From the IMG/VR virus record IMGVR_UViG_3300035517_000267, positions 67,521 to 131,520 of that record: a stretch of DNA of 64,000 nt. One strand, 5' to 3'. The notes beneath the pieces were generated by a model. It saw only the letters and a list, made by a program, of their open reading frames with translations. It was not told the origin of the DNA and searched no databases. The translations under genes and the position numbers were made by a program. Shown piece after piece: positions 31,627 to 56,221 of this stretch (positions are counted from its first letter, which is position 1; each line of letters opens with the position of its first letter). Source of the stretch: a virus. Taxonomy: Duplodnaviria > Heunggongvirae > Uroviricota > Caudoviricetes.

Positions 31627-32556
31627 TCAACTTCCCAAATCGGGAGTAACCATGAGATTTGTACCATCGCTAACAATGGTAGGAAGTACCCCATCCCACT
31701 TATCAAGCCACTGCTGTGCGATCCAAGTATCAGGCATATTTTCAAGAGCCTGCTGAGTAATTTCAAGAGCTTCCGCTTCGCCCTTAGCTTTTTCAATTGC
31801 AGCCTCTGCCTCGATTGAGGCAACTTCCTTCTCCTGCTCAGCCTGGATTATTGCAGTCTTCTTTTCCTGCTCTGCACGAAGAGCATCCTGTTCTGCGACC
31901 ATCTTAGCTTCAACGCTTGCCTCAAATGCGTCAGAAAAATCAATATCCTGAACTATAACAGATGTAAAGTTAATGTGATACAGATCTTCCAGAGTCTCAA
32001 CCTCATCTGCTACTTCTGCAGACAGACTAGAGCGATTTTCAAGAAGCGTCATGGCGCTATATCTTGCAAATACAATCTTTGCCTTTTCCTGAACGACATT
32101 GGAAAGCTTAGTTTCAAGAATCTCATAAGAACCATATTCTTTAGCAATATCAAGAACATAGTCAGGGTTAATAGCGTACTGGTATTCGATTGCGGCAGTC
32201 ACAGGCTGAGCGTCCATAGTATAAGATGCGAAACTCTCAGAATTAATATGAACTCTCAGGTCATAAGTAGTTACTGTATCGGAAATGGGATTAACAACAT
32301 TAAGACCAGAAGTTATCTCTTTATTAATGTTACCAAAAGTTCTAACAACTCCAATTTCAGTAGAATCAATAATCTGTATTCCACTTGCTATAAAAACAAT
32401 TACAGTTATAAGAATAATGGCGATAATAGCTATCAGCCTAACTGTTCTTACGCCTTTGGTGTTTAAAGCTTCTTTCTCAAGGTATCTAATAACGGAGCCA
32501 AAACCAATAATAATTCCAATAAGAAATATTGCCATGATAACCAAAAATATAATCAT
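31627..32556 (-). CDS. SPFH/band-7 (prohibitin/HflK-like) membrane protein
   Basis: N-terminal transmembrane helix, then an SPFH domain and a C-terminal coiled coil. Confidence 0.65.
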   Translation of the reverse strand: MIIFLVIMAIFLIGIIIGFGSVIRYLEKEALNTKGVRTVRLIAIIAIILITVIVFIASGIQIIDSTEIGVVRTFGNINKEITSGLNVVNPISDTVTTYDLRVHINSESFASYTMDAQPVTAAIEYQYAINPDYVLDIAKEYGSYEILETKLSNVVQEKAKIVFARYSAMTLLENRSSLSAEVADEVETLEDLYHINFTSVIVQDIDFSDAFEASVEAKMVAEQDALRAEQEKKTAIIQAEQEKEVASIEAEAAIEKAKGEAEALEITQQALENMPDTWIAQQWLDKWDGVLPTIVSDGTNLMVTPDLGS

Positions 32557-33116
32557 TTAATATACTCCTTTATATCTTCTATAATTTTTTCTATATGAAC
32601 AGGATAGCAATTATGACTATCCGTTTCAACGTGATAAGATAGAATATTCTGTTTAATTAGTTCGTATTTATCTTTTGTGTGCGAATGCCCGCATATATTT
32701 ATAACCTTAGCTTTTAGTGGTTTAAGTTCATCATAATTAGAAGTAATGGTAGGGAAATGAGAAAGATAAAGATGATACTTTTTATAGACTAGCATAGTAG
32801 ACCACCCAAGAATTTCTTCTACATTATTACAGCTTTCATACATGGCTAGTCGTTGCGAGGTATCATGGTTTCCGCAAATTATATGGAGTTTTCCATTCAT
32901 AGATTCAATTAGTTCTTTATTTGCGGCAAGTGCCTCTTCATTCCCTCCACCAAGACACAAATCTCCTAATACATACACATCATCTTCTGGAAGAACTAGA
33001 GAATTATGTCTTGTAATAATTGCTTCATTCATTTGTTGTATATTATCAAAACCTCGGGATTCCCAGATAAAAGGGCGATCGTGACTAAAATGCCAATCAG
33101 AGGTGAGCCATACCAT
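32553..33116 (-). CDS. calcineurin-like metallophosphoesterase (end-healing phosphatase candidate)
   Basis: SDWHFSH, LGDLC, GNHD and CGHSH metal-binding motifs. Confidence 0.7.
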   Translation of the reverse strand: MVWLTSDWHFSHDRPFIWESRGFDNIQQMNEAIITRHNSLVLPEDDVYVLGDLCLGGGNEEALAANKELIESMNGKLHIICGNHDTSQRLAMYESCNNVEEILGWSTMLVYKKYHLYLSHFPTITSNYDELKPLKAKVINICGHSHTKDKYELIKQNILSYHVETDSHNCYPVHIEKIIEDIKEYIK

Positions 33117-33118
33117 GC

Positions 33119-33604
33119 TTATTCACTTCCTTTTACTTCAATAATTTTATTATATTTATATTTTTCATATTTAGATGCAGGACAAAAATTTTGTTTCATT
33201 TTATACATTATTTTATCGGGTACTTTTTCTCGTCCTTTTCTTTTAGCATTACGCTCAAAACAAATGTTAAAGGGAGTTAAGAAATTAACTGCATATATCT
33301 CAACATCTTTAAGATTCAATTTATCAAGAACTTTATTGCGACTGTATTCATTAATATGAGTAGCATCAATATAAGTATTCTCATTGGTAATAATAGATTT
33401 ATTAATCTGACGAATGAACTCTTTAAAAACAGCATCTTCTTTAGAAAAATATTCTTCATCTTCATTTACCATGCTGAATCGAACAGCATCGCGAGAAACA
33501 CAATAGCCATTTTGTTTAGCTACCCAGCTGCTTTTACCCGATGCCGGAATCCCGCACAAAAGCCAAATCTTTTTCTGCTTCATCTTTATATACTCCGTCC
33601 GCAA
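33119..33604 (-). CDS. P-loop polynucleotide kinase-like protein
   Basis: LLCGIPASGKSSW Walker A; size and motifs resemble the kinase domains of bacterial Pnkp and T4 Pnk. Confidence 0.55.
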   Translation of the reverse strand: MRTEYIKMKQKKIWLLCGIPASGKSSWVAKQNGYCVSRDAVRFSMVNEDEEYFSKEDAVFKEFIRQINKSIITNENTYIDATHINEYSRNKVLDKLNLKDVEIYAVNFLTPFNICFERNAKRKGREKVPDKIMYKMKQNFCPASKYEKYKYNKIIEVKGSE

Positions 33605-34302: not shown

Positions 34303-35193
34303 TTATTCTTCAACATACCTTATATAGCAATCATAGCCTAAATTTGCAAGGTCTTCGGCAACTTTTTGCGCGTTCTCTTTTACTGAGAAAAATCCAACTT
34401 GAACCCTATAGCCCTTCTTCTCGTCATCATATGTAATGAAAGCAGATTCATACGAAAATCCATTAATACCAGATTTAAGACTTTTAATAACTGCAAGATA
34501 GCGCTGAGCATTTTCTTTTTTAGAAAAAAATCCAAGTTGACAGCGATAACCAATTTTTAGCTTTTTTGTCCAAACGGCACAAACAGTATCTACAGATCTT
34601 TCCCATCCGGCATCTGTTATTCTAATACTATCAACATAGGCTGCGACACTTCCGCCGCCATCCATGTTAAGAGCATATTGACAATCAGGAAACTGCTCCA
34701 AAATAACAGTTTGCACAGTTGAGAAAGAAGCTCCGTTACCTTCAATAGTAATGTTAAAAAGAGTATCAGCAGTCCAACCCCAAATATTACGATGTGCGGC
34801 GCCGCTTATTTCACTAGCAGTTTTAATAATGCACTTATTTCCATCTGCTATAAGAGTGGGATAAGAAGAAATATAATGTTTCCAAGCATGATCTGTTGCA
34901 GACCCATAAGCTATTTCTCCATCTGTTGTAATACCCCAACCATCTATATTAGTTGCATCGGAGCTATAGACAACTCCATTAGAAATAACATTAAAAATAC
35001 TATCTCCACTAGATGTGTTGAAGAAGCCTAAGTTTGTAAGAACATTAGGCTTAGTCTCATAAGTGTCCAGCATTTTATTAGGCGCAAGCTTCGGCTGAGT
35101 ACATATATCAAATGAGATATTAGTAATTTCCTTTTTGGGTATTTTAATTACCTGTATTTTCATTCCATTCTGAGTAAAAGATTCATAATTCAT
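34303..35193 (-). CDS. phosphodiester-glycosidase (NAGPA)-like domain protein with two C-terminal SPOR peptidoglycan-binding repeats
   Basis: ALNMDGGGS motif; two repeats of (C/R)QLGFFSKKENAQR... / RVQVGFFSVKENAQK... typical of SPOR domains. Confidence 0.55.
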   Translation of the reverse strand: MNYESFTQNGMKIQVIKIPKKEITNISFDICTQPKLAPNKMLDTYETKPNVLTNLGFFNTSSGDSIFNVISNGVVYSSDATNIDGWGITTDGEIAYGSATDHAWKHYISSYPTLIADGNKCIIKTASEISGAAHRNIWGWTADTLFNITIEGNGASFSTVQTVILEQFPDCQYALNMDGGGSVAAYVDSIRITDAGWERSVDTVCAVWTKKLKIGYRCQLGFFSKKENAQRYLAVIKSLKSGINGFSYESAFITYDDEKKGYRVQVGFFSVKENAQKVAEDLANLGYDCYIRYVEE

Positions 35194-36266
35194 GTGTTAA
35201 ATTCTCCTTCTTTCAAATGTAAAGTTTTTATAAAAGATGCTGTAGTCATTTTTTCAAAGTAGTCGTCTGCATGATCAAAAACATATAGCAAATAATGTGC
35301 TACTTCAGGAGGATAATAAGAGAGAACCTTAATTGCATAATCTTTTTTATTAAGGCAATAAGAACCCATTTCTACCTCTGCCCGCATACAAGCTCTTACA
35401 AGACGAGAGAGCCTATCTTTTATCATATCTATTTTTTCTTGATATTCAGGAGCATAAGTCAAGAATTCGTCCTCTTCACCTTGCCGCACTATTTCAACAA
35501 GAGTAGACAATGAAACAGCTCCGTTGGCTCTTGAATAATGCGCCTTTACATACGCAACAGATTTTACTTTTATACGATTGGTGCCATCGGACACCACAAA
35601 TCCTTCTTTTGTCCAAGGGAAAGTTGAAGCTTTATCTACAATTTCTTTAAGATTAGCAAAGCTGTAACTAGCTGGAGCTTCTATAGGAAGAGGATAATTG
35701 ACATACATTCCATTTTCCTTATTTCGTGCAGCTAAATAATAAATTTTTGTTTCGTCATAAGGAATCACTACACGATTATAGGGTGACACAAGCTCAAACA
35801 TATAGGTATATTTACAATCCAGCATTTGATAAAATTCATTCTTAGAAAAACCAAGGGCTTCCATAAAAAGGTCATAAAAAGTTTTATCAAAATTTCCTAC
35901 TTCTGCTTTTCTTGCATCAATAGTGCCATTGGTTGATATATGCCAACCGTCATGGTACCATACTTTTATCAAGCTTCCATCTATCTTCTCGGTAATCTCT
36001 ACATTATTCCAATTAACAGCTGCGGCATAAGGTTCTCCATAGTTGAAAAATTTATCAAAAGGACGACAAACTATATCCCAAGTGGGTTCATAAAATATAA
36101 TTCCTCGTGCTTCTCTAACGAGCGAATAGGCAAAATCAGAATCAGGCTGAGAATATTTAAAGAGTATATAATTATTATATCTACTAATTTTTAGATTATA
36201 AGGTGCATGAGTAAGCTCTTCTTCCCAATTTTCATGCGAAAGAATATAATTTTTCAATTCACTCAT
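35190..36266 (-). CDS. RNA ligase (Rnl-family nucleotidyltransferase)
   Basis: KxDG motif ITEKIDGSLIKVWY; the N-terminal region resembles T4 Rnl-type ligases. Confidence 0.6.
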   Translation of the reverse strand: MSELKNYILSHENWEEELTHAPYNLKISRYNNYILFKYSQPDSDFAYSLVREARGIIFYEPTWDIVCRPFDKFFNYGEPYAAAVNWNNVEITEKIDGSLIKVWYHDGWHISTNGTIDARKAEVGNFDKTFYDLFMEALGFSKNEFYQMLDCKYTYMFELVSPYNRVVIPYDETKIYYLAARNKENGMYVNYPLPIEAPASYSFANLKEIVDKASTFPWTKEGFVVSDGTNRIKVKSVAYVKAHYSRANGAVSLSTLVEIVRQGEEDEFLTYAPEYQEKIDMIKDRLSRLVRACMRAEVEMGSYCLNKKDYAIKVLSYYPPEVAHYLLYVFDHADDYFEKMTTASFIKTLHLKEGEFNT

Positions 36267-38296: not shown

Positions 38297-38389
38297 TGGC
38301 GGAGAAGAAGAGATTTGAACTCCTGCGCCGATATTTCACGACCTATCGGTTTAGCAAACCGACCCCTTCAACCACTTGGGTACTTCTCC
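38297..38389 (-). tRNA. tRNA-Ser (anticodon GCU), type II with long variable arm
   Basis: Minus-strand sequence GGAGAAGTACCCAAGTGGTTGAAGGGGTCGGTTTGCTAAACCGA...AGGAGTTCAAATCTCTTCTTCTCCGCCA. Acceptor, D arm, anticodon loop TTGCTAA, long variable arm, T loop and an encoded CCA are all in place. Confidence 0.8.
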
Positions 38390-38720: not shown

Positions 38721-38721
38721 A

Positions 38722-39258: not shown

Positions 39259-39417
39259 ATCTTACCTCCTAGGGTATGGCGGCGGGGGACGGTACTGACC
39301 CGTCTTCCAAGCTTTTAGAGAGCCTTGCATTACCTTTATGCTACCCCGCATTTTCTAATTCTATTATACAGGAAAAATTTCATAAAGTCAAAAAAAAGAG
39401 AGGGTTTATTCCCTCTC

Positions 39418-39858
39418 TTAGAAAATAGCTTCTTCAAAGCCGTCTCGTTCAGTTCTATAAGGCTTGATGGTATTACAAAGTATATTCAAACAAATTTGCA
39501 TCAATACTTTAATTTTTTGTGAAGTTTCATCTATTGCCAAAGCTTCTAAAAGAGTATCACAAACGCTACAACTTCCATAACTAATCCACGTCATAAGATA
39601 ATCTTCGTGCGTAGGCTGGTAAGTCTCAAAAGGAAGAAGATAAAGCAACGTACCTTGATAATCTCCATTATCTATCTCAGTAATTCCGTCTATATAGATA
39701 TTATAAGCTTCCCAGCTTTCATCATTATAAACTCGTTCAAAAGCAATTTCAACTAGATCTTTGTAAGTTATATAGTCATTCTCCAACAAATGTTGAGACA
39801 AGGCATATTCCAATTTATCTTTGTTCCTGTCCCATTTCTCCTTGATAATATTTAGCAT
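39418..39858 (-). CDS. hypothetical protein
   Basis: 146-aa ORF, no recognisable motif. Confidence 0.4.
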   Translation of the reverse strand: MLNIIKEKWDRNKDKLEYALSQHLLENDYITYKDLVEIAFERVYNDESWEAYNIYIDGITEIDNGDYQGTLLYLLPFETYQPTHEDYLMTWISYGSCSVCDTLLEALAIDETSQKIKVLMQICLNILCNTIKPYRTERDGFEEAIF

Positions 39859-44738: not shown

Positions 44739-44753
44739 TTAAATTCCTCCTAG

Positions 44754-45119
44754 TTAGACTAGATCTGTGGCAGAGCCACCATATAAAACTAAAGTGTCAA
44801 CCCATTTAAGATTGTTATCCTCGCCCTTTTGCAGGATTTGACCCGGTTCCGCGTCAGTAAAACCAGATATTAAAATACTGCCATCATCTGCTTTAACCAA
44901 ATTCCCATTATCTGTTATTTTAAAGTTACCTTCAAAATAATCTAAGTCCTTCCAAGCAGTGGCGCCATCACCAACCTTAAATTGGTTTCCACCTTCATCA
45001 AAGCAAATTTGTCCGGCAAGAGGAATAAAACTATCTTCAAAAGAACCTCTTAAAGTATCTCTATCTTTAATAAGTTCCCATAATGTTTTTAATCCTTCTT
45101 GATTAAGAAATTTAGACAT
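44754..45119 (-). CDS. tail-fibre-repeat-like protein
   Basis: N-terminal LNQEGLKTLWELIK is paralogous to the gene at 45137-45946; contains GDGATAWKDLDYFEG. Confidence 0.4.
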   Translation of the reverse strand: MSKFLNQEGLKTLWELIKDRDTLRGSFEDSFIPLAGQICFDEGGNQFKVGDGATAWKDLDYFEGNFKITDNGNLVKADDGSILISGFTDAEPGQILQKGEDNNLKWVDTLVLYGGSATDLV

Positions 45120-45136
45120 TTATTTGTCCTCCTTTC

Positions 45137-45946
45137 TTATACACAAATTTCGTTGATTTCTTCCTCAGTTAAAGCCTCGGGAATCTCGCTCTTAATAGCT
45201 TCGATATCCTTCTTTACAGCGACTTCATGGTCAGGGTCATCTGCAACATAATCTTCCGCAGCCTTATCCTCTGCGTTATGATAAAACATACCCTTTTGAT
45301 ACACATTTAAGCGGCTGCCTATCCAGTTGCCATTAACCTCTTTATCTGCATAAATCTGTGCGACCATGCCATCTGCGCCGCCATCATTCACACCAACAAA
45401 AGATTCAGTACCATCGGTATGGACATACTTAGCGCCGCCGCCATCACCTTCATTGAAGATAAGACCTTCACCATTAGTACCCTTGACGCTTTGAGTGGTT
45501 TTCTTGGCAACTTCAGTATCAACATACTCTATAGTAGCATAGGCACTCAGGTCTATAATACCAGAGAGATTATCCCAGGAATCACCAGTCCAAACAACAT
45601 TATCTCCAGCCTTGATACCATTTTCATCATCTGCGGCGACCACATTATAGACATCGCCAACCGTTAAGTCATCAGTAGGCAGTTCCGCATAGGTATCAAC
45701 ACTGCCCTTAAAAGTGAAAACTTTAGTGATTTCCGCGGTTGCTTCATCAATTTGAGATTGAAGAGCTTCAATAGTATCCTTTAATTCTTCCTTGGATTCA
45801 TAATTACCAAGAATTTCAACAAGTTCGGTAGAAGTCTTATAGTCTTTAAGAGCGGTAGAAATGTCTTCGGAAGTAGCCGCATATTCTTTAATCTTAGCCC
45901 ATAAAAGCTTTAAGCCTTCTTGATCTAAAATCTTAGCCATTGTCAA
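45137..45946 (-). CDS. structural protein (fibre or decoration paralog)
   Basis: N-terminal LDQEGLKLLWAKIK is paralogous to the gene at 44754-45119. Confidence 0.4.
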   Translation of the reverse strand: MTMAKILDQEGLKLLWAKIKEYAATSEDISTALKDYKTSTELVEILGNYESKEELKDTIEALQSQIDEATAEITKVFTFKGSVDTYAELPTDDLTVGDVYNVVAADDENGIKAGDNVVWTGDSWDNLSGIIDLSAYATIEYVDTEVAKKTTQSVKGTNGEGLIFNEGDGGGAKYVHTDGTESFVGVNDGGADGMVAQIYADKEVNGNWIGSRLNVYQKGMFYHNAEDKAAEDYVADDPDHEVAVKKDIEAIKSEIPEALTEEEINEICV

Positions 45947-45979
45947 TTACTCCTTTTATATAAGAATTGAATTAACTTC

Positions 45980-46309
45980 CTATTCAGTCATAGGAATATC
46001 TTTATCAACCCACTCAAGAGTTCCAGTAGAACCCTTTGAAGGGATTTGACCAACGGAAGCAGTGTCGAAGCCATATAATTCAGCTTTAGACCCTGATAAA
46101 ACAAGGCTTTTACCATCAACAGAGAGAGTGGCTTCTCCACCGAAATACTGTAAATTATTCCACGCAGTTTTGCCATTGCCAATTTTGAGTTTACCTGTAT
46201 CTAATTCATAGCCAGGCTCAGCTTCGGCAAGAATAGGATTTACATTTTTCCAGTCTGCGGCATTACCACGCTTAAATTTAAAAGTAGTAGTATAAACAGT
46301 TGTAGCCAT
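45980..46309 (-). CDS. tail-fibre-repeat-like protein
   Basis: GNGKTAWNNLQYFGG motif. Confidence 0.4.
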   Translation of the reverse strand: MATTVYTTTFKFKRGNAADWKNVNPILAEAEPGYELDTGKLKIGNGKTAWNNLQYFGGEATLSVDGKSLVLSGSKAELYGFDTASVGQIPSKGSTGTLEWVDKDIPMTE

Positions 46310-46323
46310 AATTTTTCACTTCC

Positions 46324-46641
46324 TTAAACGGTGCCGCCGTCATAAATGGTATCAGTTCCGGAGCTAGAGGAAACATTACCGCCATCATATATAATATTTC
46401 CACCACTGGAAGTACCGCCACTGTCTGGCTGTAAAATCCACTGATGGAAGTTATTAAGCATATATGTATTACCAGTTTCTACCACTTTAGCGGTACTGCC
46501 TGCACTCTTGTTTACAGGGAGATCCGCAATATCAGATTCGTAGTCACATATATATACTCCAATATTATAAAATGACTGCTTACCTGTATTTCTTCCTATT
46601 GTAATCATTTGATATTCTCCTTCCCTAATAGATTCGTTCAT
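46324..46641 (-). CDS. small structural protein, paralogous to the gene at 56222-56407
   Basis: Shared motif YICDYESDIADLPVNKSAGSTAKVV against YVCDSDSDIMNLPTDIPMGSTAFVI. Confidence 0.4.
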   Translation of the reverse strand: MNESIREGEYQMITIGRNTGKQSFYNIGVYICDYESDIADLPVNKSAGSTAKVVETGNTYMLNNFHQWILQPDSGGTSSGGNIIYDGGNVSSSSGTDTIYDGGTV

Positions 46642-46686
46642 AAAGTATAAATTTTACTTTAATAAGATTTTCCTTTTTTTGTCCTG

Positions 46687-46986
46687 TTACTTACCTTTAT
46701 AATATTTATACCATTCTCTATATAGTTTTTCTTTATCGGGAAAAGGAACATTATATTGCCACATCCACTCGTGCCAATGGCGTACTTGACTTGCATAATA
46801 TTCTTCAAAAGATGTTCCTACCACTTGATAATCGCATATATCATACGTCATAAAATTTTTGCGGTAAGCGTTATGTTGTAGCTCGTTATCAAGCTTATTT
46901 CGTCTTAATTTGCGGTTTGCATATTTCTTGTAGGCTCGATCTTTGCGCATTCCCGCACGAGGGGTTTTTTTATAAGAGCGACTCAT
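46687..46986 (-). CDS. highly basic small protein
   Basis: Lys/Arg-rich N-terminus; terminator hairpin and an AAGGAGGTAAGATAATG ribosome-binding site upstream. Confidence 0.4.
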   Translation of the reverse strand: MSRSYKKTPRAGMRKDRAYKKYANRKLRRNKLDNELQHNAYRKNFMTYDICDYQVVGTSFEEYYASQVRHWHEWMWQYNVPFPDKEKLYREWYKYYKGK

Positions 46987-47088
46987 TATCTTACCTCCTT
47001 AATAAAAAAGGCGGAGCATAAGCCCCGCCCATAACGTAATAGCACAATAAAACACATATGAATCAAGCAACTGCGAGCTAAACTCGCT

Positions 47089-47269
47089 TGGTAGTCGGTA
47101 CGGGATTCGAACCCGTGACTTCAGCGTTGGAACTAAAAATAAGATTTGAACTTACATCTTTGACCACTCTTCGTCTGAATAAAATCTTATTTCAAATTCA
47201 AAAAGTCAATATTTTTCTTTAAACTATTTTAGCGAAAGGCTGATGACTTAACCTCTTGTCGAACCGACC
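47089..47269 (-). tRNA. tRNA-Glu (UUC) gene interrupted in the anticodon loop by a 106-nt tRNA-like insert (47128-47233)
   Basis: 5' half GGTCGGTTCGACAAGAGGTTAAGTCATCAGC-CTTTC, and 3' half AC-GCTGAAGTCACGGGTTCGAATCCCGTACCGACTACCA. Acceptor (7 bp), D arm, anticodon stem TCAGC/GCTGA, a 4-nt variable loop, canonical T loop TTCGAAT and CCA are all present. The predicted spliced loop CTTTCAC reads UUC. Confidence 0.55.
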
Positions 47270-47687
47270 ATATATAGCTTTTGTTTTAAAAGGAAGCTAT
47301 AAGAAACCTTTGTGATAAGAACCAGAGACTTATCACCCTCACATTTACCCCTGCGATTTTCCCTAGGACTGGGGGATCTTTCCTTTCAGCTTTTTACCCA
47401 GAACTCGAAAGAAAGATATAAATACAAACTGGCTATATTGTTTATAGACTACTAGAAGTCTTAAGATTTTTTGGCTAAATCTTATAACCGTCGCCTTAAG
47501 TAGGTCAAAGCTACAAAAAACCTGTTTTAAAGAGTTTTCTTTCTCCATTAGAGTGAATGACACTATAGATAATTCCCTACAATCTAGATATAATAATTTC
47601 TTTTAATCGAGAAAGAATTAATAAGAAAGAATAACTACAATATTGTAAGTACGTTCCCATTGTTTAAATCCTAGAACGCCAAGGATT

Positions 47688-47774
47688 TGGTGCGAGCGGC
47701 GGGACTCGAACCCGCACGTCCTTGTGGACACGAGATTTTAAGTCTCGGGTGTCTACCACTTCCACCACGCTCGC
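47688..47774 (-). tRNA. tRNA-Leu (UAA), type II
   Basis: GCGAGCGTGGTGGAAGTGGTAGACACCCGAGACTTAAAATCTCGTGTCCACAAGGACGTGCGGGTTCGAGTCCCGCCGCTCGCACCA; anticodon loop CTTAAAA; long variable arm; CCA encoded. Confidence 0.8.
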
Positions 47775-48387
47775 TTATATTTTATGAAAGACCCCTTCGG
47801 GTTGCTATCTGTTCAATCGTAGCTATATTCAGTCAATAGGGAGACAAGAGTGTGCCTAGAGGAGCTACCTCTAAACAGCTTGCCCCAGCTTAGAGCCAAG
47901 TCCCATGGGAGATTGGTTACTCCCAACTTTCACCCACCATTCACATCTTGTATCTGTTAAAACCATTAACATAAAAATTTGATGTAATCTTGGCAGACCA
48001 TTTGGGCTACTCGTACTGTGACCTTATCTTATACACCGATTTCTCGGCTTCAACTGCCAAGTTCCTTAGTGACATTCCAAGGTTTGCAAAAACTGTCACA
48101 TTTTTACCTAACTTGGATTCTTCTCCACAGGAGCGTCTATTGCGGAACCGATAAGACCATACTTTTAACTGCGATTGTGATAGTGCCTTTCTTCCTACAG
48201 AGCTAAAGTTCTTTAGCCTCAACCCAACCTCACGAATTGAGCCGATACAAGATTGCTAGGGTATCCTCTAGTACCTTGCTACTTACGGAAGAAGCCTCAG
48301 CACAATGGCGTTTGTCTACACTGAGTTCTTTCATAATATTTTGTCATTCTTATTTATGTATAGATGGAGAATAACAAAACCACCTTT

Positions 48388-48461
48388 GGCAGTCCCTACT
48401 CGTGACGATCGAGTACCCTCTGATTCAAAGTCAGATGTGCAGTCCGCTACACCAAGGGACT
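48388..48461 (-). tRNA. tRNA-Gln (UUG)
   Basis: AGTCCCTTGGTGTAGCGGACTGCACATCTGACTTTGAATCAGAGGGTACTCGATCGTCACGAGTAGGGACTGCCA. Perfect 7-bp acceptor, anticodon loop CTTTGAA, CCA encoded; the T loop ATCGTCA is non-canonical. Confidence 0.6.
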
Positions 48462-48519
48462 ATATTGTGAGCCAGTTTAATGTCATAGCTCAGGACGGGA
48501 GGTGATTATAATTATGACT

Positions 48520-48650
48520 CATATATATATTATACTCTTTTTTTATTATTTTTTCAAATTTTCTTTATTTCGTTCAAAAAGATTTTTTCTTTCTTTCTTT
48601 CCTTACCTTGTATATATATTATACTCTTTTTTTATTATTTTTTCAAATAA
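48520..48650 (-). repeat. two direct repeats of about 37 bp (tatatattatactctttttttattattttttcaaat) upstream of the late block; late-promoter candidates
   Basis: Copies at about 48527 and 48611. On the minus strand they read GAGTATAATATATATA, close to the -10 region of the conserved early promoter motif. Confidence 0.4.
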
Positions 48651-48917
48651 AAAATAGGCTGGTTTAAAGTCACAGCCTAGGACTTTTGCACATACATTTA
48701 AGGAATAATAATAGTACAAAAACTATTATACTTCTGAAAAAAACTCTAAAAATATTATATTCTTTTTTTTTTGTTACGGCAAATTATTCTTCTTCGCTAG
48801 TCTTTTCTTCGTTGAGAGCAGCAGTAAGCTCTTTAGCCCCGTCCGCAATATCTTGGAAGATTTTCTTTAAACTTTCTTGGCTCTTTTTACCCAAGATAGA
48901 TAACTTCTCTAAATCTG

Positions 48918-51053
48918 TCATTCAAAATCTTCTCCTTCCAATTCTTCAATTCCACCTTCTTCTTCCATAGATTCTTTATCAGTTATATATATCATAATAG
49001 GTTCATCTATGTCATAGAAAGTTAATGTATCATTTTCATAATCTATAGAATAATGTTCCTCTGAAAGTTGCTCCTTAAGAGGTAAGCCTATCTCATACCA
49101 TATATAAGGTAACTTTCCAATTAAAGGACTAGCTTTTAAGAACTCAAAATCACATTCACTTAACTTATTTCCTTGATAAATAAAAGAATTATTTTCCATT
49201 TTTTGGATACCAGTGTCTCCATTTTCATCTAAGAAATATTTTCCATCATCAAGCTCAAATATTACGCCTAATATTCCACCAACCATTTTATCAAGTGTAT
49301 AATAAACAGGAATAAGTTTAAGATTAACTGAATTGCTCATTTCACTTAAGCGATAAATAGAATCATCATATTCTTTTCTAGCAAATGACGTTGTAGTTAA
49401 TGCTCCAAAAATTTCAACAAGCTAAACCACAATATTAAAACGAGATTCTCCATTTATGGTTGTATACATTACATAATTACCATCGCCAATATTAGAATTA
49501 AACTCAATCTCATTTGTTTCTTCATTTTGAGTCATGTTTATATAGATTTCTTGGACTTCTGGTCTTGGACACTCCTAATAAGTAGCTATATACATACCAT
49601 TTTTTCTAGTAGAAAGTTTACAATATCCTTTATAAATATTCCATTCTGCGTGGACTTCATCATCTAAAAGCCAAGGTGCTACCCATATAGTATTACCTCT
49701 ATAAACATTACTAGGACACGTTGTAATAGAATTTTCTTCTTCGCCTTCTATTATTGAACCTTCTTCGCCAAAATCAAAAACTAATCCATTTTGACAGCCA
49801 TATCTGCCAGAAACACACAAAAATTCATTTTCATATTCAAATATTTTTGCTTTTGCTTCATTGTCATATTCATCTTCATTTTCTTCGTTTCTAATAGTTA
49901 ATGCAGCATTGTAAATCTTTAAGGGTCTACTCTGAGTAGCTTTTTCATTATCAGTAACTGCATATACTTCAAAATAAGCGCCTTCTGTATACAAAGCTGC
50001 TAAAACATACAAAAGAATAATTCCAATAGTAGAATTATCAGAATCTTTATAATCAAAAAGTTTGTCTATAGACTCAACTAATGAAACTTCTCCCATAACA
50101 AATGAAGTCAGTTGGTTAGGTTCATAAGTACCATTTAATCCACCAAAAATAGCATAAATGGCTTGATAAACTGTATTAACAATAAAATTTATTAAACCTT
50201 CATTTCCATTGTTAAGGTCATTAAAATCTAAACTATTAACGACAGTAACTACAGTATTAATAATACCATTCCAAGTGGTATTGCAAATAGGAAATAATTG
50301 GTTAATGAATTCCGCAAGAGAAGGAACATCTTTCAATTGTTTAATAGCAGCAATAAGATTATCAATCAGTTCTAATCCATCTTTTACTAAAGGAGCATAC
50401 CAAACTTCATCTGGGTCTTGTTCCGCAAGTTCTTCTAATATGTCCTTAACGGCATTACTTTCCCAAGCTTCTTCAATATCATCTATTAAAGTAACGATTT
50501 GAGAAACGTCAATTTCTGGAAAATATCTTAAACAAATGTCTGATATAACATCTGCGGGAACCCTGATATGTAGAGTATACTTAGGATACCTAATCTTAGC
50601 CTTAGCTCCTGCTATTATCATCTAGTTGAAGTAAGTAAAGAAGTCAGGGGAAAATACATCTTTCACCTAACTAACGAAACTGACTATTTCCTTATAAAGA
50701 TAAGAGTACGCTAAATCATCTATATCAGTATCACTTGCATCTTCTCCAGCTTCTTCTTCTACCTTCTTTTCAATATCGTTAATCATTTGCTTGTAATTAG
50801 CTATAGTTTTTAATACATCCTAAAATTTAATATTATTATCAAAATAACTATGATTTTCAATAGTAATACTAGGATTTGTTCCAACTCCAAGATCGTCAAC
50901 ATCATCCATTACAAACTTAAAGGTAGGCGTAGGATTAACATCATGCAAACTAAAAACAGCATCTTCTCCCGTATCAGTGGGTAGTTTAACCGAATCTATT
51001 TCATTATAAGTAATAGTGTTACCCAATGAGTTTTTTAAACTAATATTAACCAT
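48918..51053 (-). CDS. late structural protein of about 711 codons read through five in-frame TAG codons; function unknown
   Basis: ORFs 50820-51053, 49575-50621 and 48918-49340 share one frame and are separated only by TAG codons, near 50820, 50667, 50622, 49575 and 49422. There is one start with AAAGGAG 9 nt upstream of the ATG at 51053, and one terminal TGA at 48918. Confidence 0.65.
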
Positions 51054-51055
51054 TA

Positions 51056-52093
51056 TTATTCATCTCCTTTAAGTGTAATCGTAGAATCTTCTTGCTCAAG
51101 ATTGTCGGCAGAAGAAATGTTATAAGTAGTTCCATCAACATTTACATTTGATATATTGTATTCAAACTCACATACTATTTCACCATTTTCAAGAGTAAAA
51201 GGAAATCTACATCTAAAATAGGAAATATCCTGTAAAGTATTTGCAGTAGAATCGCTAAATCTAGTAAAATAATTGCTTTTATCTATATCACTTAATACTA
51301 CTGCGTTTTGTAAAGTGTCAATAACTTGCTTCCAAGCAGTTTCTTCGTCTTGGAGAGCAGAAAACTAAACGTCTTGTGGAACTTTAACTCCACAAAAATA
51401 AACACCATAATTTATAATTATATTATTTAAAAAATCTTTTTCTGCCAAAATTAGTTTTCCTAAATTGTTTAATAAATCTGGGATGACAGAATTTTCAGCC
51501 CTTGCCAATATTCCTAAATATTCGTTATAGGAAATATTGTCAGTTTGGTTAGCCATAACAGTTTCGTTATAACTGTCTATATTTAGCCTTGTATAAATGG
51601 TTATTTTATCATAACTAGGGGAAATAAAGGCGGCTCCCGCACGTCCCCAAGTATTAAACTATGAAGTACGAGAAACATAATCATCAGGAATTGGTGCTAC
51701 TACTATATCTCCTGTTGCATAAGTACCTTGTTTTATTGCTATTTGAGAAGAGAGAGAGGGAGTTATTATCTCTCCCTCTTCTACCACAAGCTACCTTTTT
51801 GATTCTTGTTTGCCCGAAGTCGCGGTAATTAAACCAGTATCACTAACTGTAATAACAGGTTCAGGGCAAAGAACATTAACAGTAGCTTGTTTAAAACCAA
51901 CTAAACCTTCGCTAGGAGTTAAAGTATAAGTGCCATTATCCGTATATGTTTCTTTTACAGAATCATTTAATAATTCTTCTGAATAATAAGGAGCGAAGGT
52001 TTGCTGAGAGCTATCGGTTGGGACTAAAACTTCTTTGATTCCCTCGAAAGAAACACCTTCACCCGATTTATTTAATAAATATACTTGTGGCAT
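51056..52093 (-). CDS. late protein(s) with three in-frame TAG codons and an apparent +1 frame change near 51720
   Basis: MPQVYLL... ends at a TAG (51791) and stays open for 35 codons. An overlapping +1 frame (…YATGDIVVAPIPDDYVSRTS[TAG]FNTWGRAG...) runs into MANQTDN... (51556), crosses another TAG at 51365, and ends at the TAA at about 51056. A frameshift, a sequencing indel, or two overlapping genes are all possible. Confidence 0.35.
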
Positions 52094-52165
52094 TTTAACC
52101 CAGCCTTTCAGGATTTAGTTTCTGTTTGCACCTTTATTTCATCTTCAAAGGAAATATCAACTATT

Positions 52166-52759
52166 TTAGTCATCAGTAAAATCTCCTTCTATATCTTCTT
52201 CAAAATTAATAGTAAAACTTAAATCATTAGCGGGAAATCTTAATTGCATAGCATGAGCCGTTGTAATAGAATTGGCAAGCTAGTTAGCATATATTAAAGT
52301 AGTTCCTTGATATAAAGCTATAGCATCTATAACGCCCCAGCCACCTTGATCCACAACGTCGTCTGTAGAATTATTTATATTGTCAGCAGAACCATCATCA
52401 ATCTCAGGGAAAAGAAGGTCATAGGCATTTATAACGGTTGCCTCTGAACCAGTATGTTTTAAAACTAAATAATTTCCAGATTCATAACTTGATTTAAGGT
52501 TCTTAGCTGTGGTTCCAGTGCCTTCAACGTCATCACTGTAAACTAAAATTTGTCTTTTTACATATTGTCTTGTATCAGAGACTTTATCTATCTTGTCTTG
52601 ATGTTCTTCGGGAAGGTGACTCTTGATAGAATCAACGCTTATTTTTATAAATTTATTTTCATCTTCGGCATCTTCATCCCAGTAACCTAATTCAATATAA
52701 AAAGTTCCGTTACTAAAAATTTTATCCCAAAGCGTCTCTTTACCTTTGGTAGTTATCAT
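52166..52759 (-). CDS. late protein with one in-frame TAG
   Basis: Strong ribosome-binding site AAGGAGGAAGAATAATTATG; TAG at 52280-52282; the frame continues for 37 codons to a TAA. Confidence 0.55.
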
Positions 52760-52761
52760 AA

Positions 52762-53208
52762 TTATTCTTCCTCCTTAGTTACTTCTTGCAATTTAATTTT
52801 AATGCCTTTTTTAGGAGAGCTAGAATAAGCATTTAGTTTTATTAAATGATTTTGTCCTAAAGAAACAGGGCTATTAAATTTAATAGCATACATTGCAACT
52901 CCATCTGCTTTATTAGTAGAATTTTCTCCATTTTCTAAGATATATCTACCATCATAAAACATTAAACCATCTACTGCTACATTCCCGGAACTTTTATTTT
53001 CGTTAAATAAAACCGAGCCAGTAGTTTTCCATTCAAGGTTAGATGTATCAAGTGAGCAAGATATTGACTTATTTCTCGTTGTTCCATTATCATCCAGGCT
53101 GGTAATTCTGTTCATACCGCTTTCTTCACCCTAGCCAAGAGCAATATACTAAGTACCATTGGAAAATAAAGAACTCATAATTAAGCCTAAAAAGGTTTTT
53201 GTGACCAT
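52762..53208 (-). CDS. late protein with two in-frame TAG codons near the N-terminus
   Basis: AAGGAGGA ribosome-binding site 7 nt upstream of the ATG at 53206-53208. Sequence MVTKTFLGLIMSSLFSNGT[TAG]YIALG[TAG]GEESGMNRITS...; terminal TAA. Confidence 0.55.
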
Positions 53209-53226
53209 GTTTAAATCCTCCTTGGA

Positions 53227-55480
53227 TTATCTTATTGCTGTAGCGCTTTCAGTAGCGCTATAATCATATATTTGTTTTATTTTTAAAGCATAGTCAGACT
53301 ATACCGGATCTATCCAATCAATGTCTAGCTTTAAAACTCCATCATTCGCATCATAGGAATATACTTGATAGATTTTTAAAGTATCATCTATTTGTACTGG
53401 ATCGATCCAATCAGACGGCTCAGTCTACTCTACTTCTACTTCAATATCATTAACAAATGTTAAAGAATTTTGGACATTTACTATGCTAGTTTGCGGATAT
53501 ATGCACACACAATTTGCATCATTAATAAAATTTATAGAAGAGCTTAAAGCCTCACTATAATCTTTTTGCTCTGCAATATATAAAAGACAATTATTTGAAA
53601 AGTTTAAAACTAAAGATGAATCCTATTTATAATCTTGTTGACTTACTGTATGTAACCTACAATTATTTATAAATTGTGTTTTTGAATCTAAGATTGAACT
53701 ACAATCTTTCCAACTAGCTATATATAAATTATAATTATTTAAGAAGTTTAAGTCTGATTTGAGATTTTCTTTTTGTTCTTGATTACTTATAAGCTATAAT
53801 CTGCGGACGCCGGTAGTATGTAGCGACATATCTTGTTTTGAAGATTGTTCATTCTCGTATATTAGCTTCGCCTAAGCGTTTGCCGCAAACTCCAAGCTAC
53901 TTTCTCCATTATATGTACAATCTACTGTTACAATAGAAAAATCTAAAATAGTAAGAAAATAAGAGTTCAAGAATTGTGTACAAGCTTTACTAGCCAAGTC
54001 CGCACAATTATCAGAAACCAAAGTAGCTCCCAATGAAAGAGTTGAATTTATCGAATTTATTAAATTATTCTAATTATCACTCTTATATACATCTGCTATT
54101 CTATAATTTTTTTGAACTTGAACATTATTTTCAAAACTATCTTTTAAATCTTCTTCTGCTATTAATTGCGCATTAGCTTTTTTAACAATCTAAGCTGTAT
54201 TTTGCAAACTTGCTTCATTTGTTTTAGGAGAAACTAATGCCAATCTTAATCCTAAACTGGTAAAACCTAAAGATTCTTTAAGGTTCGTTGTAGAGATCTC
54301 TCCTGGCATAACAAGAGTTGCATCAAAGTCTTTTTGAACCTTTAACTTTGGAGATTCCAAATTAGCATCAAGGTACCTAGGCTCTATATTAGTGCCACTA
54401 TAATCTTTTTTAATCTAAAAATTTGAGGTTGTATCAAAAAATTTTAAAAAGTCAACTTGACGTATGTCAAGTAGTTTCGCAGACCTTCGTGTATAGAAAT
54501 TATAGGTATCTTTAATGCTCGAAGGAAACGAATGTCTAGTACAATTTAAGGCAAGACTTTTTCTTTTTATTTTAAAAGTATAAGTGTCATTTGATTCTGG
54601 GACAAGGTTTTCTCTGTCTACATTAACCGCAAAATTTTTCCGATGTAATTTATAAGTGTAAGAGTCATTTGATTTTGGAACAAGATTTTCTCTAGATAAA
54701 TCAATAGCTTTATCAAATCTTTTCAAATAATAGGCATAACTATCTGTAAGAGAAAGACCTTTTCTAGTAATATCTTGTGCCCTTGTGCGCCTTCGACCTA
54801 GCAGCGTCCGCACATTTTTATCCTTTAGAAAAAGTCCTTTTCTTTCCAAATTTTTAGCTTTAGTTTTTCGTAAAATCTTAAAACTATCTTTAGTTTTAGA
54901 ATTACTGTTAAATAATTCCAAATTACTTGCATTGCCATCGCGTTTTATAACAAAAGAAAATTTAGCTTTATTTGAGCCTTCTTGATTAGCAAGATTTATT
55001 GCAGTAAAACTTCTTTTAAACTAAAAATTGTCTTGTATATCAGCATTAATATCTCCATCTATACAAACGGTTGCATTTAAGCTATAGATAGGAATAACCG
55101 TATTAGATGTATTAATACTGTTATTATATATTAATAAATCTTCTGCGCGAGTTGAATTCTAAGTCTAAGCAAATGAAAAAAACTCTTCATCGAATGTTTT
55201 TCCTGGGATAATATGAACTATATTATAAGTATTTTGCGGACGCACGCTTACTGATTGTGACACATCTTGGTCTATAGAGCATTTCGCCATACTCTATAGC
55301 CTTATGTCATTAATAGAAATAATATTAGTTTTTTCATCTGCTTTTGTCGGCAGCTAAGTTGTACAATGTAATCGTACATTCATACTAGCCGCAACTGAAT
55401 TATCTCCTATTAATTCTGGCTATTCGTTCTAGATAGTTACGAATGTAAGTCCAGCCGCATTATCAAACTAGGTTGTAGCT
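53227..55480 (-). CDS. large TAG-rich late protein (tail-fibre or tail-like, with DWIDPV and ENLVPxSNDxYTxK repeats); start not resolved
   Basis: ORF 54415-54921 ends in TAG and shares a frame with the TAA at 53227. The 1.3 kb between has no ORF of 60 codons or more in any frame under the standard code, and in-frame TAGs were confirmed at 53299 and 53425. Confidence 0.45.
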
Positions 55481-55558
55481 TTATAGTTTCCTTTTAATAC
55501 AATTGATTTTTCGTTTAGAGGAAGTAATTGATAATATAATAATAAATATTTTTGTTTA

Positions 55559-56215
55559 TTATCCATTTGAGACATCCCTACTTACGCAAGACCATTTGCC
55601 TTCTCCCAACGCTATTCCAACTATTTCATGAAAAGCATTTTGCGTAGTAGCGGCTAGATGACCCACTAGTCCAATTGTATTTTCTTCTAATCCTCCTATA
55701 GCAATAGTAATATAGCTAGATTGAGGTATTGTATAAGATATATAAAACATATCCCCCAGCGTTTTCGCAGGAGGAATTGTAAAGGCAGTTATATCAGTTA
55801 AAGTGCCTAATATATATACATTATTTGCTTTAATAATTCCATCAGATGGCAATGAAGTGTTTACAGTCATGCCAGGCGGAATTGTAGTGTCAGTATATTC
55901 TTTCGCTTGTTTTAAAACATTATTGATTGAGCCTTCTGTATCCTCAGAACCATTTAAAGTATTAATATTCTAAATTATATCTGCGGCGACCTCGGTATGT
56001 GAATCGATCCAGCTTGATACTTCTTTCAATGTATCAAGCGTTTCGGGCGCACCATCAACCACCGCCGCAATTTTTTCATTTACTAATGCTTCTATATCAT
56101 CTGTTGATATATGCTCGGATACAATTTCTTTTATTTGTTCAACAGCTTCTTCTCTTGGTAGGAAATCTTTCGCATCAATGTATTTTTTAGCAAGAGTATA
56201 AGTTGTAAAATCCAT
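55559..56215 (-). CDS. late protein read through one TAG (ORFs 55970-56215 and 55559-55870 fused)
   Basis: TAG at 55970-55972; 33 in-frame codons link to the MTVNTS... ORF; terminal TAA. Confidence 0.55.
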
Positions 56216-56221
56216 GAATTA

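Follow-up and report, generated by a model that had tools for sequence, protein, structure and literature searches.

A split tRNA-Glu(UUC) gene in a phage RNA-gene cluster and a CUA-anticodon tRNA in a TAG-recoded phage

The region 47040-48470 of the window (the whole 64,000-nucleotide stretch of viral DNA that was analysed) is best explained, with good though incomplete confidence, as part of a single transcription unit of RNA genes that is read from the minus strand in a large TAG-recoded phage. In the same explanation, the phage decodes TAG with a CUA-anticodon tRNA of its own, and a mobile tRNA-like insert splits the tRNA-Glu gene of the unit; the confidence expressed applies to the three parts jointly. 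The insert would be a degenerate tRNA and one of a mobile family whose members also interrupt genes for tRNA-Lys, tRNA-Asn and tRNA-Ile and whose complete form bears an HNH homing endonuclease. Apart from the split tRNA-Glu gene, the region is an ordinary phage RNA-gene cluster.

The suppressor tRNA and the reading of TAG

An earlier note on this DNA had stated that none of its tRNAs reads UAG, and had supposed that a suppressor lies outside the window, is hidden in two unexplained structured stretches (47280-47690 and 47775-48388) or is replaced by a host decoder. None of the three routes holds as worded. The proposed check, ARAGORN over the whole window, was run and settled the question, as a CUA anticodon was found within the window and in neither stretch, and a host decoder is not required.

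39277..39350, minus strand: suppressor tRNA with anticodon CUA, 74 nt, CCA encoded (ARAGORN; Rfam RF00005, 41.4 bits, E=5e-6)
39363..39419, minus strand: terminator-like hairpin (39419-39396), then a promoter-like TTGACT-17-TATAAT site (39391-39363)

The score exceeds the Rfam gathering score of 29 for RF00005, and the minimum-free-energy fold of the RNA is a cloverleaf, in which the 7-nt loop of the anticodon arm (CUCUAAA) has CUA at positions 34-36. The gene lies 8 kb downstream of the flagged cluster, the promoter-like site is 13 nt upstream of it, and the same tRNA sequence is present in contigs L007 and L008. It is a class I tRNA with G73, U35, an unpaired 1-72 position (U1/C72) and the T loop GUCAGUA. 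A suppressor tRNA inside either of the two stretches was excluded by permissive ARAGORN, Rfam at E<=1 and a covariance model of our own.

ARAGORN labels the suppressor tRNA "Pyl", a label that rests on the anticodon alone; a tRNA-Pyl was rejected, the architecture being in disagreement. Pyl-type tRNAs have a 6-bp anticodon stem, a 3-nt variable loop, a tiny D loop without GG and a single base separating the acceptor and D stems, whereas the tRNA described here has a 5-bp anticodon stem, UA at positions 8-9, a D loop (AAAGGUA) with GG and a 4-nt variable region. No relatives were detectable in the GenBank phage collection or IMG/VR, where matches were at chance level at most, and similarity to the 129 tRNAs of the fetched loci was uninformative as to isotype; the suppressor tRNA resembles none of them. 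Release-factor and aminoacyl-tRNA-synthetase domains were not found among the larger ORFs of the window, which is part of the genome. In having no synthetase among them, the window matches other TAG-recoded phages, in which the host synthetase is used (PMC10607447). With an amber-suppressor tRNA encoded by the phage itself, there is no call for an exotic mode of decoding.

The premise of the earlier note, namely that the phage is TAG-recoded and that such phages usually bring their own suppressor tRNA, proved sound. A block of ORFs with in-frame TAGs bears on it:

48918..56218, minus strand: TAG-rich block of six ORFs, with 1, 16, 2, 1, 3 and 5 in-frame TAGs

The recoding of window genes is upheld by these in-frame TAGs, 28 in total in ORFs of unknown function or tail-fibre-like character, and by a frame, shared by PIN_4 and PhoH domains, that spans the TAG at 30430. 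Under the standard code, 15 of the 82 ORFs stop at TAG, and most of these read on for 37-395 codons.

TAG is most likely read as Gln, with a host enzyme charging the tRNA. As neither IMG/VR nor a set of 5.8 billion proteins yielded homologues of the TAG-rich proteins, the reading was approached through codon statistics, a single polymorphism and a repeat within one sequence. CAG is depleted 5.6-fold in the TAG-rich block (3/2406 codons versus 54/7711, p=4e-4), and among the single-nucleotide neighbours of TAG this depletion is the strongest. The TAG at 53133 is CAG in strain L007, and where one copy of an internal repeat has DWIDPVQ, the other has DWIDPV followed by TAG. Together with the class I character, G73, U35 and unpaired 1-72 position of the tRNA, these observations point indirectly to Gln; against it, two TAGs align with F and Y in a paralogue pair.

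The system resembles that of code 15 phages (crAss-like, Lak, phAss-1 and the recoded gut-phage clades of Borges et al.; 10.1101/2021.08.26.457843, PMC9523058, PMC10607447) in its phage-borne class I CUA tRNA, in the clustering of in-frame TAG in structural or late genes with rarity in replication genes, and in the likely Gln reading with no dedicated aminoacyl-tRNA synthetase found. It differs in that the tRNA has no detectable relative, an unusual T loop and an unpaired 1-72 position, and in that the TAG-rich proteins are without detectable homologues.

Layout of the RNA-gene cluster

The features assigned to the cluster, apart from the split tRNA-Glu gene, are given below with a further tRNA gene of the window.

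48529..48646, minus strand: two tandem promoter-like sites (TTGAAA-17-TATAAT, 11/12 matches each), upstream of tRNA-Gln
48387..48461, minus strand: tRNA-Gln(UUG), CCA encoded (ARAGORN; Rfam tRNA 46.6 bits, E=1.9e-7)
47772..48349, minus strand: ROOL RNA (RF03087), full length (322.1 bits against a gathering score of 99.1, E=2.5e-73)
47688..47774, minus strand: tRNA-Leu(UAA), class II, with a long variable arm (ARAGORN; Rfam 55.3 bits)
47270..47687, minus strand: spacer of 418 nt with no tRNA, known RNA family, significant fold or credible ORF
47009..47030, minus strand: intrinsic-terminator-like hairpin with a T run (9 pairs, 7/9 G-C), which ends the RNA-gene unit
38297..38389, minus strand: tRNA-Ser(GCU) (ARAGORN, Rfam)

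Transcription would thus pass from the two promoters through tRNA-Gln(UUG), ROOL RNA, tRNA-Leu(UAA), the spacer and tRNA-Glu(UUC) to the terminator. The two promoter-like copies form a direct repeat and probably mark the start of the unit; their promoter/leader motif is found at least 12 times across the window. The tRNA-Leu, tRNA-Gln and tRNA-Ser calls of the earlier note are borne out by ARAGORN and Rfam, and a terminator-like hairpin (38290-38263) lies 3' of tRNA-Ser(GCU). The atypical T loop reported for tRNA-Gln is likewise correct (AUCGUCA, non-canonical with A54/U58). The gene itself is confirmed: besides being called by both programs, it has a cloverleaf as its minimum-free-energy fold, and zero substitutions were seen in it between the strains compared. 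In GenBank phages, megablast with 21 kb found no close relatives of the window.

One of the two stretches that had been described as structured is indeed so, 47775-48388 being accounted for by ROOL RNA. The match covers all 574 positions of the model (1-574), the RNA adjoins the 5' end of tRNA-Leu with its 3' end, and tRNA-Gln lies on the other flank; ROOL RNA is also present in strain L009 (315 bits). Its position among tRNAs agrees with published descriptions (PMC5737381, PMC12286853), and the RNA has been described as an octameric nanocage (PMC12286853). The full-length match, the phage context and the location inside a tRNA cluster are as in other members of the family, with no notable difference (PMC5737381, PMC12286853). 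RNase P cleavage at tRNA-Leu would set the ROOL 3' end.

The other stretch, 47280-47690, is without detectable structure. Neither the whole stretch (z = -1.5) nor its 120-nt windows (z = -0.2 to -1.3) folded significantly, and permissive ARAGORN, Rfam at E<=1 and ORF inspection gave zero tRNAs, zero matches and no notable ORF. Searches of GenBank phages with the spacer 47270..47687 returned nothing, or chance-level matches at most; its sequence is invariant among the strains sampled.

The insert in tRNA-Glu(UUC) and its family

The tRNA-Glu(UUC) gene reported in the earlier note is present, though not contiguous, since a 106-nt insert lies within it that had been overlooked.

47234..47269, minus strand: tRNA-Glu 5' exon, nucleotides 1-36, anticodon last (...UCAGC CUUUC), from sequence parsing
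47128..47233, minus strand: tRNA-shaped insert, 106 nt (Rfam tRNA 40.5 bits; our covariance model R1 64.4 bits)
47089..47127, minus strand: tRNA-Glu 3' exon, nucleotides 37-76 (AC GCUGA ... ACCGACU A CCA), from sequence parsing

The insert sits between anticodon-loop nucleotides 36 and 37 of a gene that extends over 181 nt (47269-47089). Standard-mode ARAGORN on the window does not call tRNA-Glu while the insert is present; when it is removed, tRNA-Glu(ttc) is called and the spliced form folds as a cloverleaf. A natural counterpart is found in strain L009, 97% identical, where tRNA-Glu(UUC) is uninterrupted (loop CUUUCAC) with identical flanks and no insert. The insert is hence polymorphic between near-identical strains.

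In the insert, an acceptor stem (GCUAAAA/UUUUAGU), a D arm, a T arm (GUAAG-UUCAAAU-CUUAU), the discriminator U and CCA can be recognized, and both of its ends coincide exactly with mature-tRNA 5' and 3' ends. Its "anticodon arm" is an extended hairpin with a remnant of an HNH endonuclease ORF. The insert is identical at 48/58 nt to the 3' end of an HNH-bearing insert (L051; phrog_35854, E=4.6e-25), with the last ORF codons kept. Such inserts lack a 7-nt anticodon loop, in place of which they have either a hairpin whose loop counts 3-4 nt or an extension that bears an ORF, and cannot decode; the Rfam score of the window insert is reached solely by skipping 36 nt. A decoding tRNA was accordingly rejected for it, in spite of the acceptor, D and T arms. 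The minimum-free-energy fold of the insert alone is no cloverleaf (-14.6 kcal/mol, z about 0), and a double cloverleaf of the 181-nt precursor is not reproduced by such folding. The tRNA-like fold is instead suggested by covariation and covariance-model scores.

Related phage contigs contain homologous inserts that split genes for tRNA-Lys, tRNA-Asn and tRNA-Ile, the phages of the family being about 160-220 kb in size. When the inserts, of 67-735 nt (67-106 nt in those without an ORF), are removed, ARAGORN calls tRNA-Glu, Lys, Asn and Ile, with a canonical 7-nt anticodon loop in every case. The insertion points are 34/35, 35/36 and 36/37, and what is found at the junctions is the foot of a 7-bp acceptor-type helix instead of 3-nt bulges. 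In two contigs the 3' end of the insert is CCG rather than CCA. In one tRNA (L001), the intron mode of ARAGORN gives Thr(UGU), while the G1...CCA boundaries, one nucleotide off, give Lys(UUU); a search of GenBank phages with this split tRNA returned nothing, or chance-level matches at most.

In the insert alignment (A2, which includes one stand-alone tRNA-Arg(UCU) row and feeds both model R1 and the covariation counts), 94.4% of the structure cells pair, compared with 48-60% with slid partners, and 10/18 pairs are changed on both sides. Compensatory change is not confined to the inserts. The anticodon stems of insert-bearing tRNA-Lys genes from three lineages read GUAGC/GCUAU, GCGGC/GCCGU and CUUGC/GCAAG, and, as judged from these sequences, compensatory changes mark the evolution of exons and insert alike. 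Two loci (L016 and L047) considered as nested elements outside a tRNA were rejected as ordinary stand-alone, AT-rich tRNA-Arg(UCU) genes. Among 42 pattern matches in 185,579 bacterial and archaeal genomes, zero nested inserts were found.

Candidate removal of the insert and rival readings

Protein-dependent cutting and rejoining is the only obvious way to a functional tRNA-Glu here, and candidate enzymes are encoded in the same window.

35190..36266, minus strand: T4 Rnl1-like RNA ligase (Pfam PF09511, 68 bits, E=1.4e-18)
33604-33119, minus strand: P-loop kinase (AAA_33)
33116-32553, minus strand: calcineurin-like phosphoesterase, adjoining the kinase

The ligase is ~30-35% identical to annotated phage RNA ligases and might be what seals the split tRNA, and the kinase and phosphoesterase (32553..33604) are possible RNA end-healing enzymes. 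In the proposed route, RNase P would cut the precursor at the 5' end of the insert and a 3' endonuclease would cut just after its CCA. The acceptor and anticodon stems would hold the tRNA halves together for sealing by an RNA ligase, for which the phage Rnl1-like enzyme would be the obvious candidate. Ligation would join ...UCAGCCUUUC to ACGCUGA..., with the junction CUUUC/AC, to give a 75-nt tRNA-Glu. An endonucleolytic cut right after CCA is not standard bacterial 3' maturation, and exonucleolytic 3' trimming would destroy the 3' exon, which counts against this route. That the inserts are distinct ribozyme-free mobile introns, excised by tRNA-maturation nucleases through mimicry and followed by rejoining of the halves by a phage Rnl1-type ligase, is advanced tentatively, as a real but lesser possibility.

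The split gene may also be read as a dead tRNA-Glu, in which an endonuclease-associated mobile element is never removed from the RNA and the phage does without a tRNA-Glu of its own. The element is decaying, with the endonuclease gene lost from the window insert, the different and intact tRNA-Glu of L009 indicates that the locus is replaceable, and neither the insert nor the precursor is tRNA-like at minimum free energy. This reading is nevertheless judged unlikely, as five different host tRNAs keep perfect cloverleaf exons with the exact 7-nt loop. Moreover, the exon stems of insert-bearing tRNA-Lys have diverged with compensatory changes, from which it follows that the exons stayed under tRNA-type selection after insertion. 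The hairpins of the insert covary as well, and the interrupted tRNA-Glu allele is identical in seven contigs of different samples. Alternatively, the freed tRNA-shaped RNA might be the functional product, for instance a decoy for tRNA-targeting defences of the host or a regulator, with the exons serving mainly as a processing scaffold. The anticodon loops of tRNA-Lys, Glu and Asn are classic anticodon-nuclease targets, and these tRNAs are occupied by inserts; the acceptor, D and T arms and NCCA are under compensatory evolution, yet no anticodon loop is present, and phage RNA-repair genes lie nearby. However, the discriminator base is free to vary (U, G, A) among copies that are identical elsewhere, one full-length copy carries an endonuclease, the element is missing from the 97%-identical strain, and selfish mobility needs fewer assumptions; a functional product of this kind appears highly improbable.

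Very improbable, and marginally the least likely of these readings, is a self-splicing or self-cleaving ribozyme (a mini group I intron or a small nucleolytic ribozyme) with an incidental likeness to tRNA. Known bacterial and phage tRNA introns are all group I and lie in the anticodon loop (PMC3984707, 10.1101/2020.01.27.920355). RAGATH-33, of a motif class tied to ribozyme-linked genes, is present in related contigs, and a kinase, phosphoesterase and ligase would suit 2',3'-cyclic-phosphate and 5'-OH ends. On the other hand, the ORF-less inserts are far below group I size (~200 nt or more), and zero Intron_gpI or small-ribozyme matches were obtained with Rfam at E<=1 in 36000-50000. The inserts end in A or G (CCA/CCG), with no obligatory terminal G, and the 5' exons end in C, U or A (C in the window) rather than the U of group I. 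Conservation and covariation trace out the cloverleaf of a tRNA, whose T loop has the canonical sequence UUCAAAU, together with NCC(A). A group I intron or small ribozyme was therefore rejected for the insert, on the Rfam null, the size and the boundaries.

Compared with group I introns (PMC3984707), the preferred mobile tRNA-like insert shares the anticodon-loop site, the presence/absence polymorphism and an endonuclease ORF placed in a peripheral loop, alongside degenerate forms without the ORF. It differs in having no ribozyme core, terminal G or Rfam match, in being 1/3 of the minimal size and in having a tRNA cloverleaf as its conserved fold. In archaeal and eukaryal tRNA introns the canonical position is 37/38; archaeal introns use a bulge-helix-bulge and EndA, neither of which is evident here, and an EndA-like domain was not seen in the larger ORFs of the window. 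A protein-dependent cut and rejoining in the anticodon loop, putative here, is shared with archaeal and eukaryal splicing and with T4 tRNA repair by Pnkp and Rnl1 (PMC3400036). The window has genes for a ligase of the Rnl1 family, for a P-loop kinase and for a phosphoesterase, but the T4 break is made by a host defence nuclease and is not gene-programmed (PMC3400036).

The only precedent found for ribozyme-free introns in tRNAs of the bacterial world, a kind rarely reported, is that of the Lak megaphages, in which "enigmatic" tRNA introns were described, one of which "itself may encode a tRNA", and no mechanism was proposed (PMC6784885, Devoto et al. 2019, Table S6). These too are non-group-I inserts of about 70-115 nt in anticodon loops of alternatively coded phages, with a module that resembles a tRNA acceptor and T arm and borders at its 3' end on the 3' exon, with strain polymorphism and with a true boundary one nucleotide off the software prediction. 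The window insert fits this class, being a non-ribozyme element in an anticodon loop with a tRNA-like module and absent from some strains; sequence or architectural homology to the Lak introns was not found. In the latter, a separate 5' hairpin and an A-rich linker precede the tRNA-like part, and the introns end in ...CA, whereas the window insert has neither hairpin nor linker and is tRNA-like from position 1 to NCCA. The present family further differs in its HNH-carrying member, its at least four target tRNAs and its phage size. What is new over Lak is the exact boundaries, the four target tRNAs, the compensatory evolution in exons and insert, the homing-endonuclease-bearing member, the natural intron-less allele and the RNA ligase in the same genome.

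With the CUA tRNA, the amber-suppressor puzzle is closed, the phage bringing its own decoder like other TAG-recoded phages. Standard bacterial tRNA finders miss the split genes or, with a boundary one nucleotide off, misassign the anticodon, and phage tRNA inventories are consequently under-counted. The family of the split tRNA-Glu turns an oddity into a testable hypothesis. If it is true, a protein-dependent tRNA-splicing pathway would exist in the bacterial and phage world, and phage RNA ligases would gain a housekeeping role beyond the repair of anticodon-nuclease damage.

Gene content and tRNA genes

The window has a GC content of 34.8% and holds every sizeable ORF on the minus strand. It encodes DNA polymerase III alpha in two pieces, gyrase A and gyrase B, an NAD-dependent ligase, a DnaB-like helicase and RNase H, PIN and PhoH domains, tail-fibre proteins and cell-wall hydrolases, and several homing endonucleases; this content marks a large virulent phage. 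No close relative was found among the GenBank phages searched. An exact-protein look-up gave nine near-identical metagenome contigs (L007-L015), and the more distant relatives are IMG/VR contigs of about 160-220 kb with a common small ORF and a promoter/leader motif of about 55 nt. This conserved motif (...TATGATATAATATATATAGAAATTGAGAAAGAAAACTC) is present at 38653-38720 and at least 12 other sites of the window, including 41017, 38262, 34281, 56895 and 23462, and also in L001-L006, L051, L055 and L092, contigs carrying tRNA-shaped inserts. The polymerase region (543-2543, 2725-3633, 3822-5675, minus strand) comprises one ORF with PHP and NTPase domains and one with finger and HHH domains, with a GIY-YIG endonuclease ORF in between. 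The arrangement could result from gene splitting or from an intron; Rfam matches at the gathering threshold included no group I intron in this region. A LAGLIDADG endonuclease ORF (15919-16773, minus strand) lies immediately upstream of an AAA_24-like fragment (region 15179-16773, minus strand), the frame upstream of which contains three TAGs, and this locus may be a further mobile-element insertion. An Amidase_2 endolysin (28778-29533, minus strand) carries an SLH domain, which hints at an S-layer-bearing host.

ARAGORN identified four tRNAs in the whole window, all on the minus strand.

tRNA genes of the window (ARAGORN and Rfam)
38297-38389, minus strand, tRNA-Ser(GCU)
39277-39350, minus strand, tRNA with anticodon CUA
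47688-47774, minus strand, tRNA-Leu(UAA)
48387-48461, minus strand, tRNA-Gln(UUG)

All four exceed the Rfam tRNA gathering score, two of them being detected by Rfam only in a search of a shorter stretch. The earlier note had called the Leu, Gln and Ser tRNAs and the atypical T loop of tRNA-Gln (AUCGUCA) correctly. Its headline, that none reads UAG and a suppressor is missing, is refuted by the CUA tRNA, found by ARAGORN on the whole window and by Rfam; its details are explained as ordinary, save a split tRNA-Glu. The CUA tRNA adopts a cloverleaf at minimum free energy, its sequence is identical in two other contigs, and a TTGACT-17-TATAAT site, itself preceded by a terminator-like hairpin, lies 13 nt upstream. 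ARAGORN labels it tRNA-Pyl from the anticodon only; it is built like an ordinary class I tRNA, and the Pyl assignment was rejected. The usual U54/A58 T-loop pair is missing in both the suppressor (G54/G58) and tRNA-Gln (A54/U58), and T loops are standard in the remaining phage tRNAs. A non-coding stretch of about 300 nt (38390-38690, minus strand), in which only permissive ARAGORN makes any call, separates a promoter from tRNA-Ser(GCU) and contains a T-arm-like segment, GTTCAAATC.

Two unexplained structured stretches had been proposed as hiding places for a suppressor. The one at 47775-48388 is a full-length ROOL RNA (47772-48349, 322 bits), a family known from phages, where it adjoins tRNA islands, and forming octameric RNA cages (PMC5737381, PMC12286853). 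The other, 47280-47690, showed no tRNA, Rfam match or significant fold, and no credible ORF or database match was found there. The spacer between tRNA-Leu and tRNA-Glu (47270-47687, 418 nt) has zero substitutions among strains that differ by about 2% in the adjacent ROOL. Eight of the roughly 12 ROOL differences fall within 32 nt (47893-47924), with a 7-nt indel nearby (47960), and this cluster may reflect a swapped hairpin in a variable region. In related IMG/VR phages, the place of ROOL in the tRNA cluster is occupied by RAGATH-33 RNA (RF03102; L002 1933-2061, L004 4185-4313, L005 4364-4492, minus strand). In the window, the cluster lies between two promoter-like sites, at 48646 and 48557, on one side and a terminator (47030-47009) on the other. 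The suppressor tRNA, like the ROOL RNA, is a fresh example of an already known kind.

The reading of TAG

Read with TAG as sense, six consecutive ORFs (56218-48918, minus strand) contain 1, 16, 2, 1, 3 and 5 in-frame TAGs, and the replication genes mostly contain none. If the standard code is applied, TAG ends 15 of 82 ORFs, the majority of which read on for 37-395 codons. PIN_4 and PhoH domains share one frame (29540-30814, minus strand) with the TAG at 30430 as their sole separator; this implies read-through also in a gene located elsewhere than in the TAG-rich block.

TAG is probably read as Gln, because CAG is its most depleted single-step neighbour in the TAG-rich block (ratio 0.18, p=4e-4), because the TAG at 53133 is CAG in the near-identical strain L007, and because, in an internal repeat, DWIDPVQ is matched by DWIDPV[TAG]. 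The suppressor, a class I tRNA with G73, U35 and an unpaired first position, argues for the same residue, since these features are Gln-like in terms of GlnRS identity. Against Gln, two TAGs stand opposite F and Y in the alignment of a paralogue pair. A search for homologues of the TAG-rich proteins, as a further check of the residue, found none. Gln is further favoured by precedent among other recoded phages (PMC9523058, PMC10607447, 10.1101/2021.08.26.457843). The scanned ORFs of the window, which is part of the genome, yielded neither a release-factor nor a synthetase domain.

A family of tRNA-shaped inserts

At 47131-47233, Rfam reports an AT-rich "tRNA" of 103 nt. Read on the minus strand, a perfect 5' half of tRNA-Glu (GGUCGGU..UCAGC CUUUC) ends at 47234 and is directly followed by a 106-nt insert (47233-47128) and then the 3' half (AC GCUGA ... 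ACCGACU A CCA). The insert is built from a 7-bp acceptor stem, a D arm, a T arm with UUCAAAU, a discriminator and CCA, with a long hairpin as its "anticodon arm". Exact removal of the 106 nt leaves a 75-nt sequence that folds as a cloverleaf and is called by ARAGORN as tRNA-Glu(UUC) with the canonical loop CUUUCAC. Strain L009 has, at the same site and between identical flanks, an uninterrupted tRNA-Glu(UUC) of divergent sequence, a pattern as expected for intron homing with co-conversion of short exons.

Homologous inserts were found by pattern scans of IMG/VR and metagenomes, and the interrupted tRNA was identified for each contig by a splice-out test.

tRNAs interrupted by homologous inserts in related contigs
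tRNA-Lys(UUU), three diverged lineages, insert of 67-68 nt (L001-6/L057; L043; L140/L142)
tRNA-Asn(GUU), insert of 73 nt (L055/L092/L141)
tRNA-Ile(GAU), insert of 735 nt (L051)

In every case, removal from position 1 to NCCA (NCCG in L140 and L142) restores a canonical loop (CUUUUAA, CUGUUAA or CUGAUAA). Insertion is after nucleotide 34, 35 or 36, and thus inside or just past the anticodon. Within the 735-nt insert lies an ORF that encodes an HNH endonuclease and has TAGs in frame (phrog_35854, E=4.6e-25), the last codons of which are kept in the window insert (48/58 nt identical); the latter is therefore an endonuclease-less derivative of that element in a different tRNA. A tRNA-like fold of the inserts is supported by covariation: in an alignment that includes one row of ordinary tRNA-Arg, 94.4% of cells pair, versus 48-60% with partners slid, and both sides have changed in 10 of 18 pairs. 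In the tRNA-Lys genes that bear an insert, the exons too show compensatory changes, which argues against pseudogenes. Among 185,579 bacterial and archaeal genomes, the insert pattern gave 42 matches, none nested. The 118-kb contig L055 has a second interrupted tRNA (10429-10561 and 6931-7213, minus strand, were noted there), in an array with a tmRNA gene; its insert of about 65 nt is not tRNA-like and has an A-rich stretch, AAATTAAATTAAA, reminiscent of Lak intron linkers.

Possible excision and closest precedent

The window insert failed group I intron tests, and bulge-helix-bulge features were not seen. Both insert ends are mature-tRNA ends; NCC is conserved in spite of the element's inability to decode, and the discriminator base varies freely. 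From these sequence features we infer that the ends and the NCC would reflect the substrate requirements of bacterial RNase P. After cleavage by RNase P the 5' exon would end in a 3'-OH, and if an endonuclease cut after CCA the 3' exon would begin with a 5'-phosphate; the halves might then be joined by a T4 Rnl1-type ligase, an enzyme that joins such ends in anticodon loops. The window encodes a T4 Rnl1-like RNA ligase (35190-36266, PF09511), an AAA_33 P-loop kinase (33119-33604) and a calcineurin-like metallophosphoesterase (32553-33116), all on the minus strand and at most 4 kb apart, which look like a tRNA heal-and-seal set. The weak points of this model are that we know of no obvious standard enzyme for the 3' cut and that minimum-free-energy folding did not reproduce the double cloverleaf.

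The closest precedent is found in Lak megaphages, the tRNAs of which contain "enigmatic introns", one of which "itself may encode a tRNA", with the true boundary one nucleotide off the prediction; neither a mechanism nor a link to an endonuclease or ligase was reported (PMC6784885). A similar off-by-one boundary changes the ARAGORN call "Thr(UGU)" in L001 to Lys(UUU). The Lak introns differ in layout: a hairpin and a linker precede a tRNA-like part with CA at its end. The literature search, incomplete in coverage, gave nothing closer. The split tRNA-Glu is a real, rare and mechanistically open feature, and it is this, rather than the ordinary suppressor and ROOL part, that merits follow-up.
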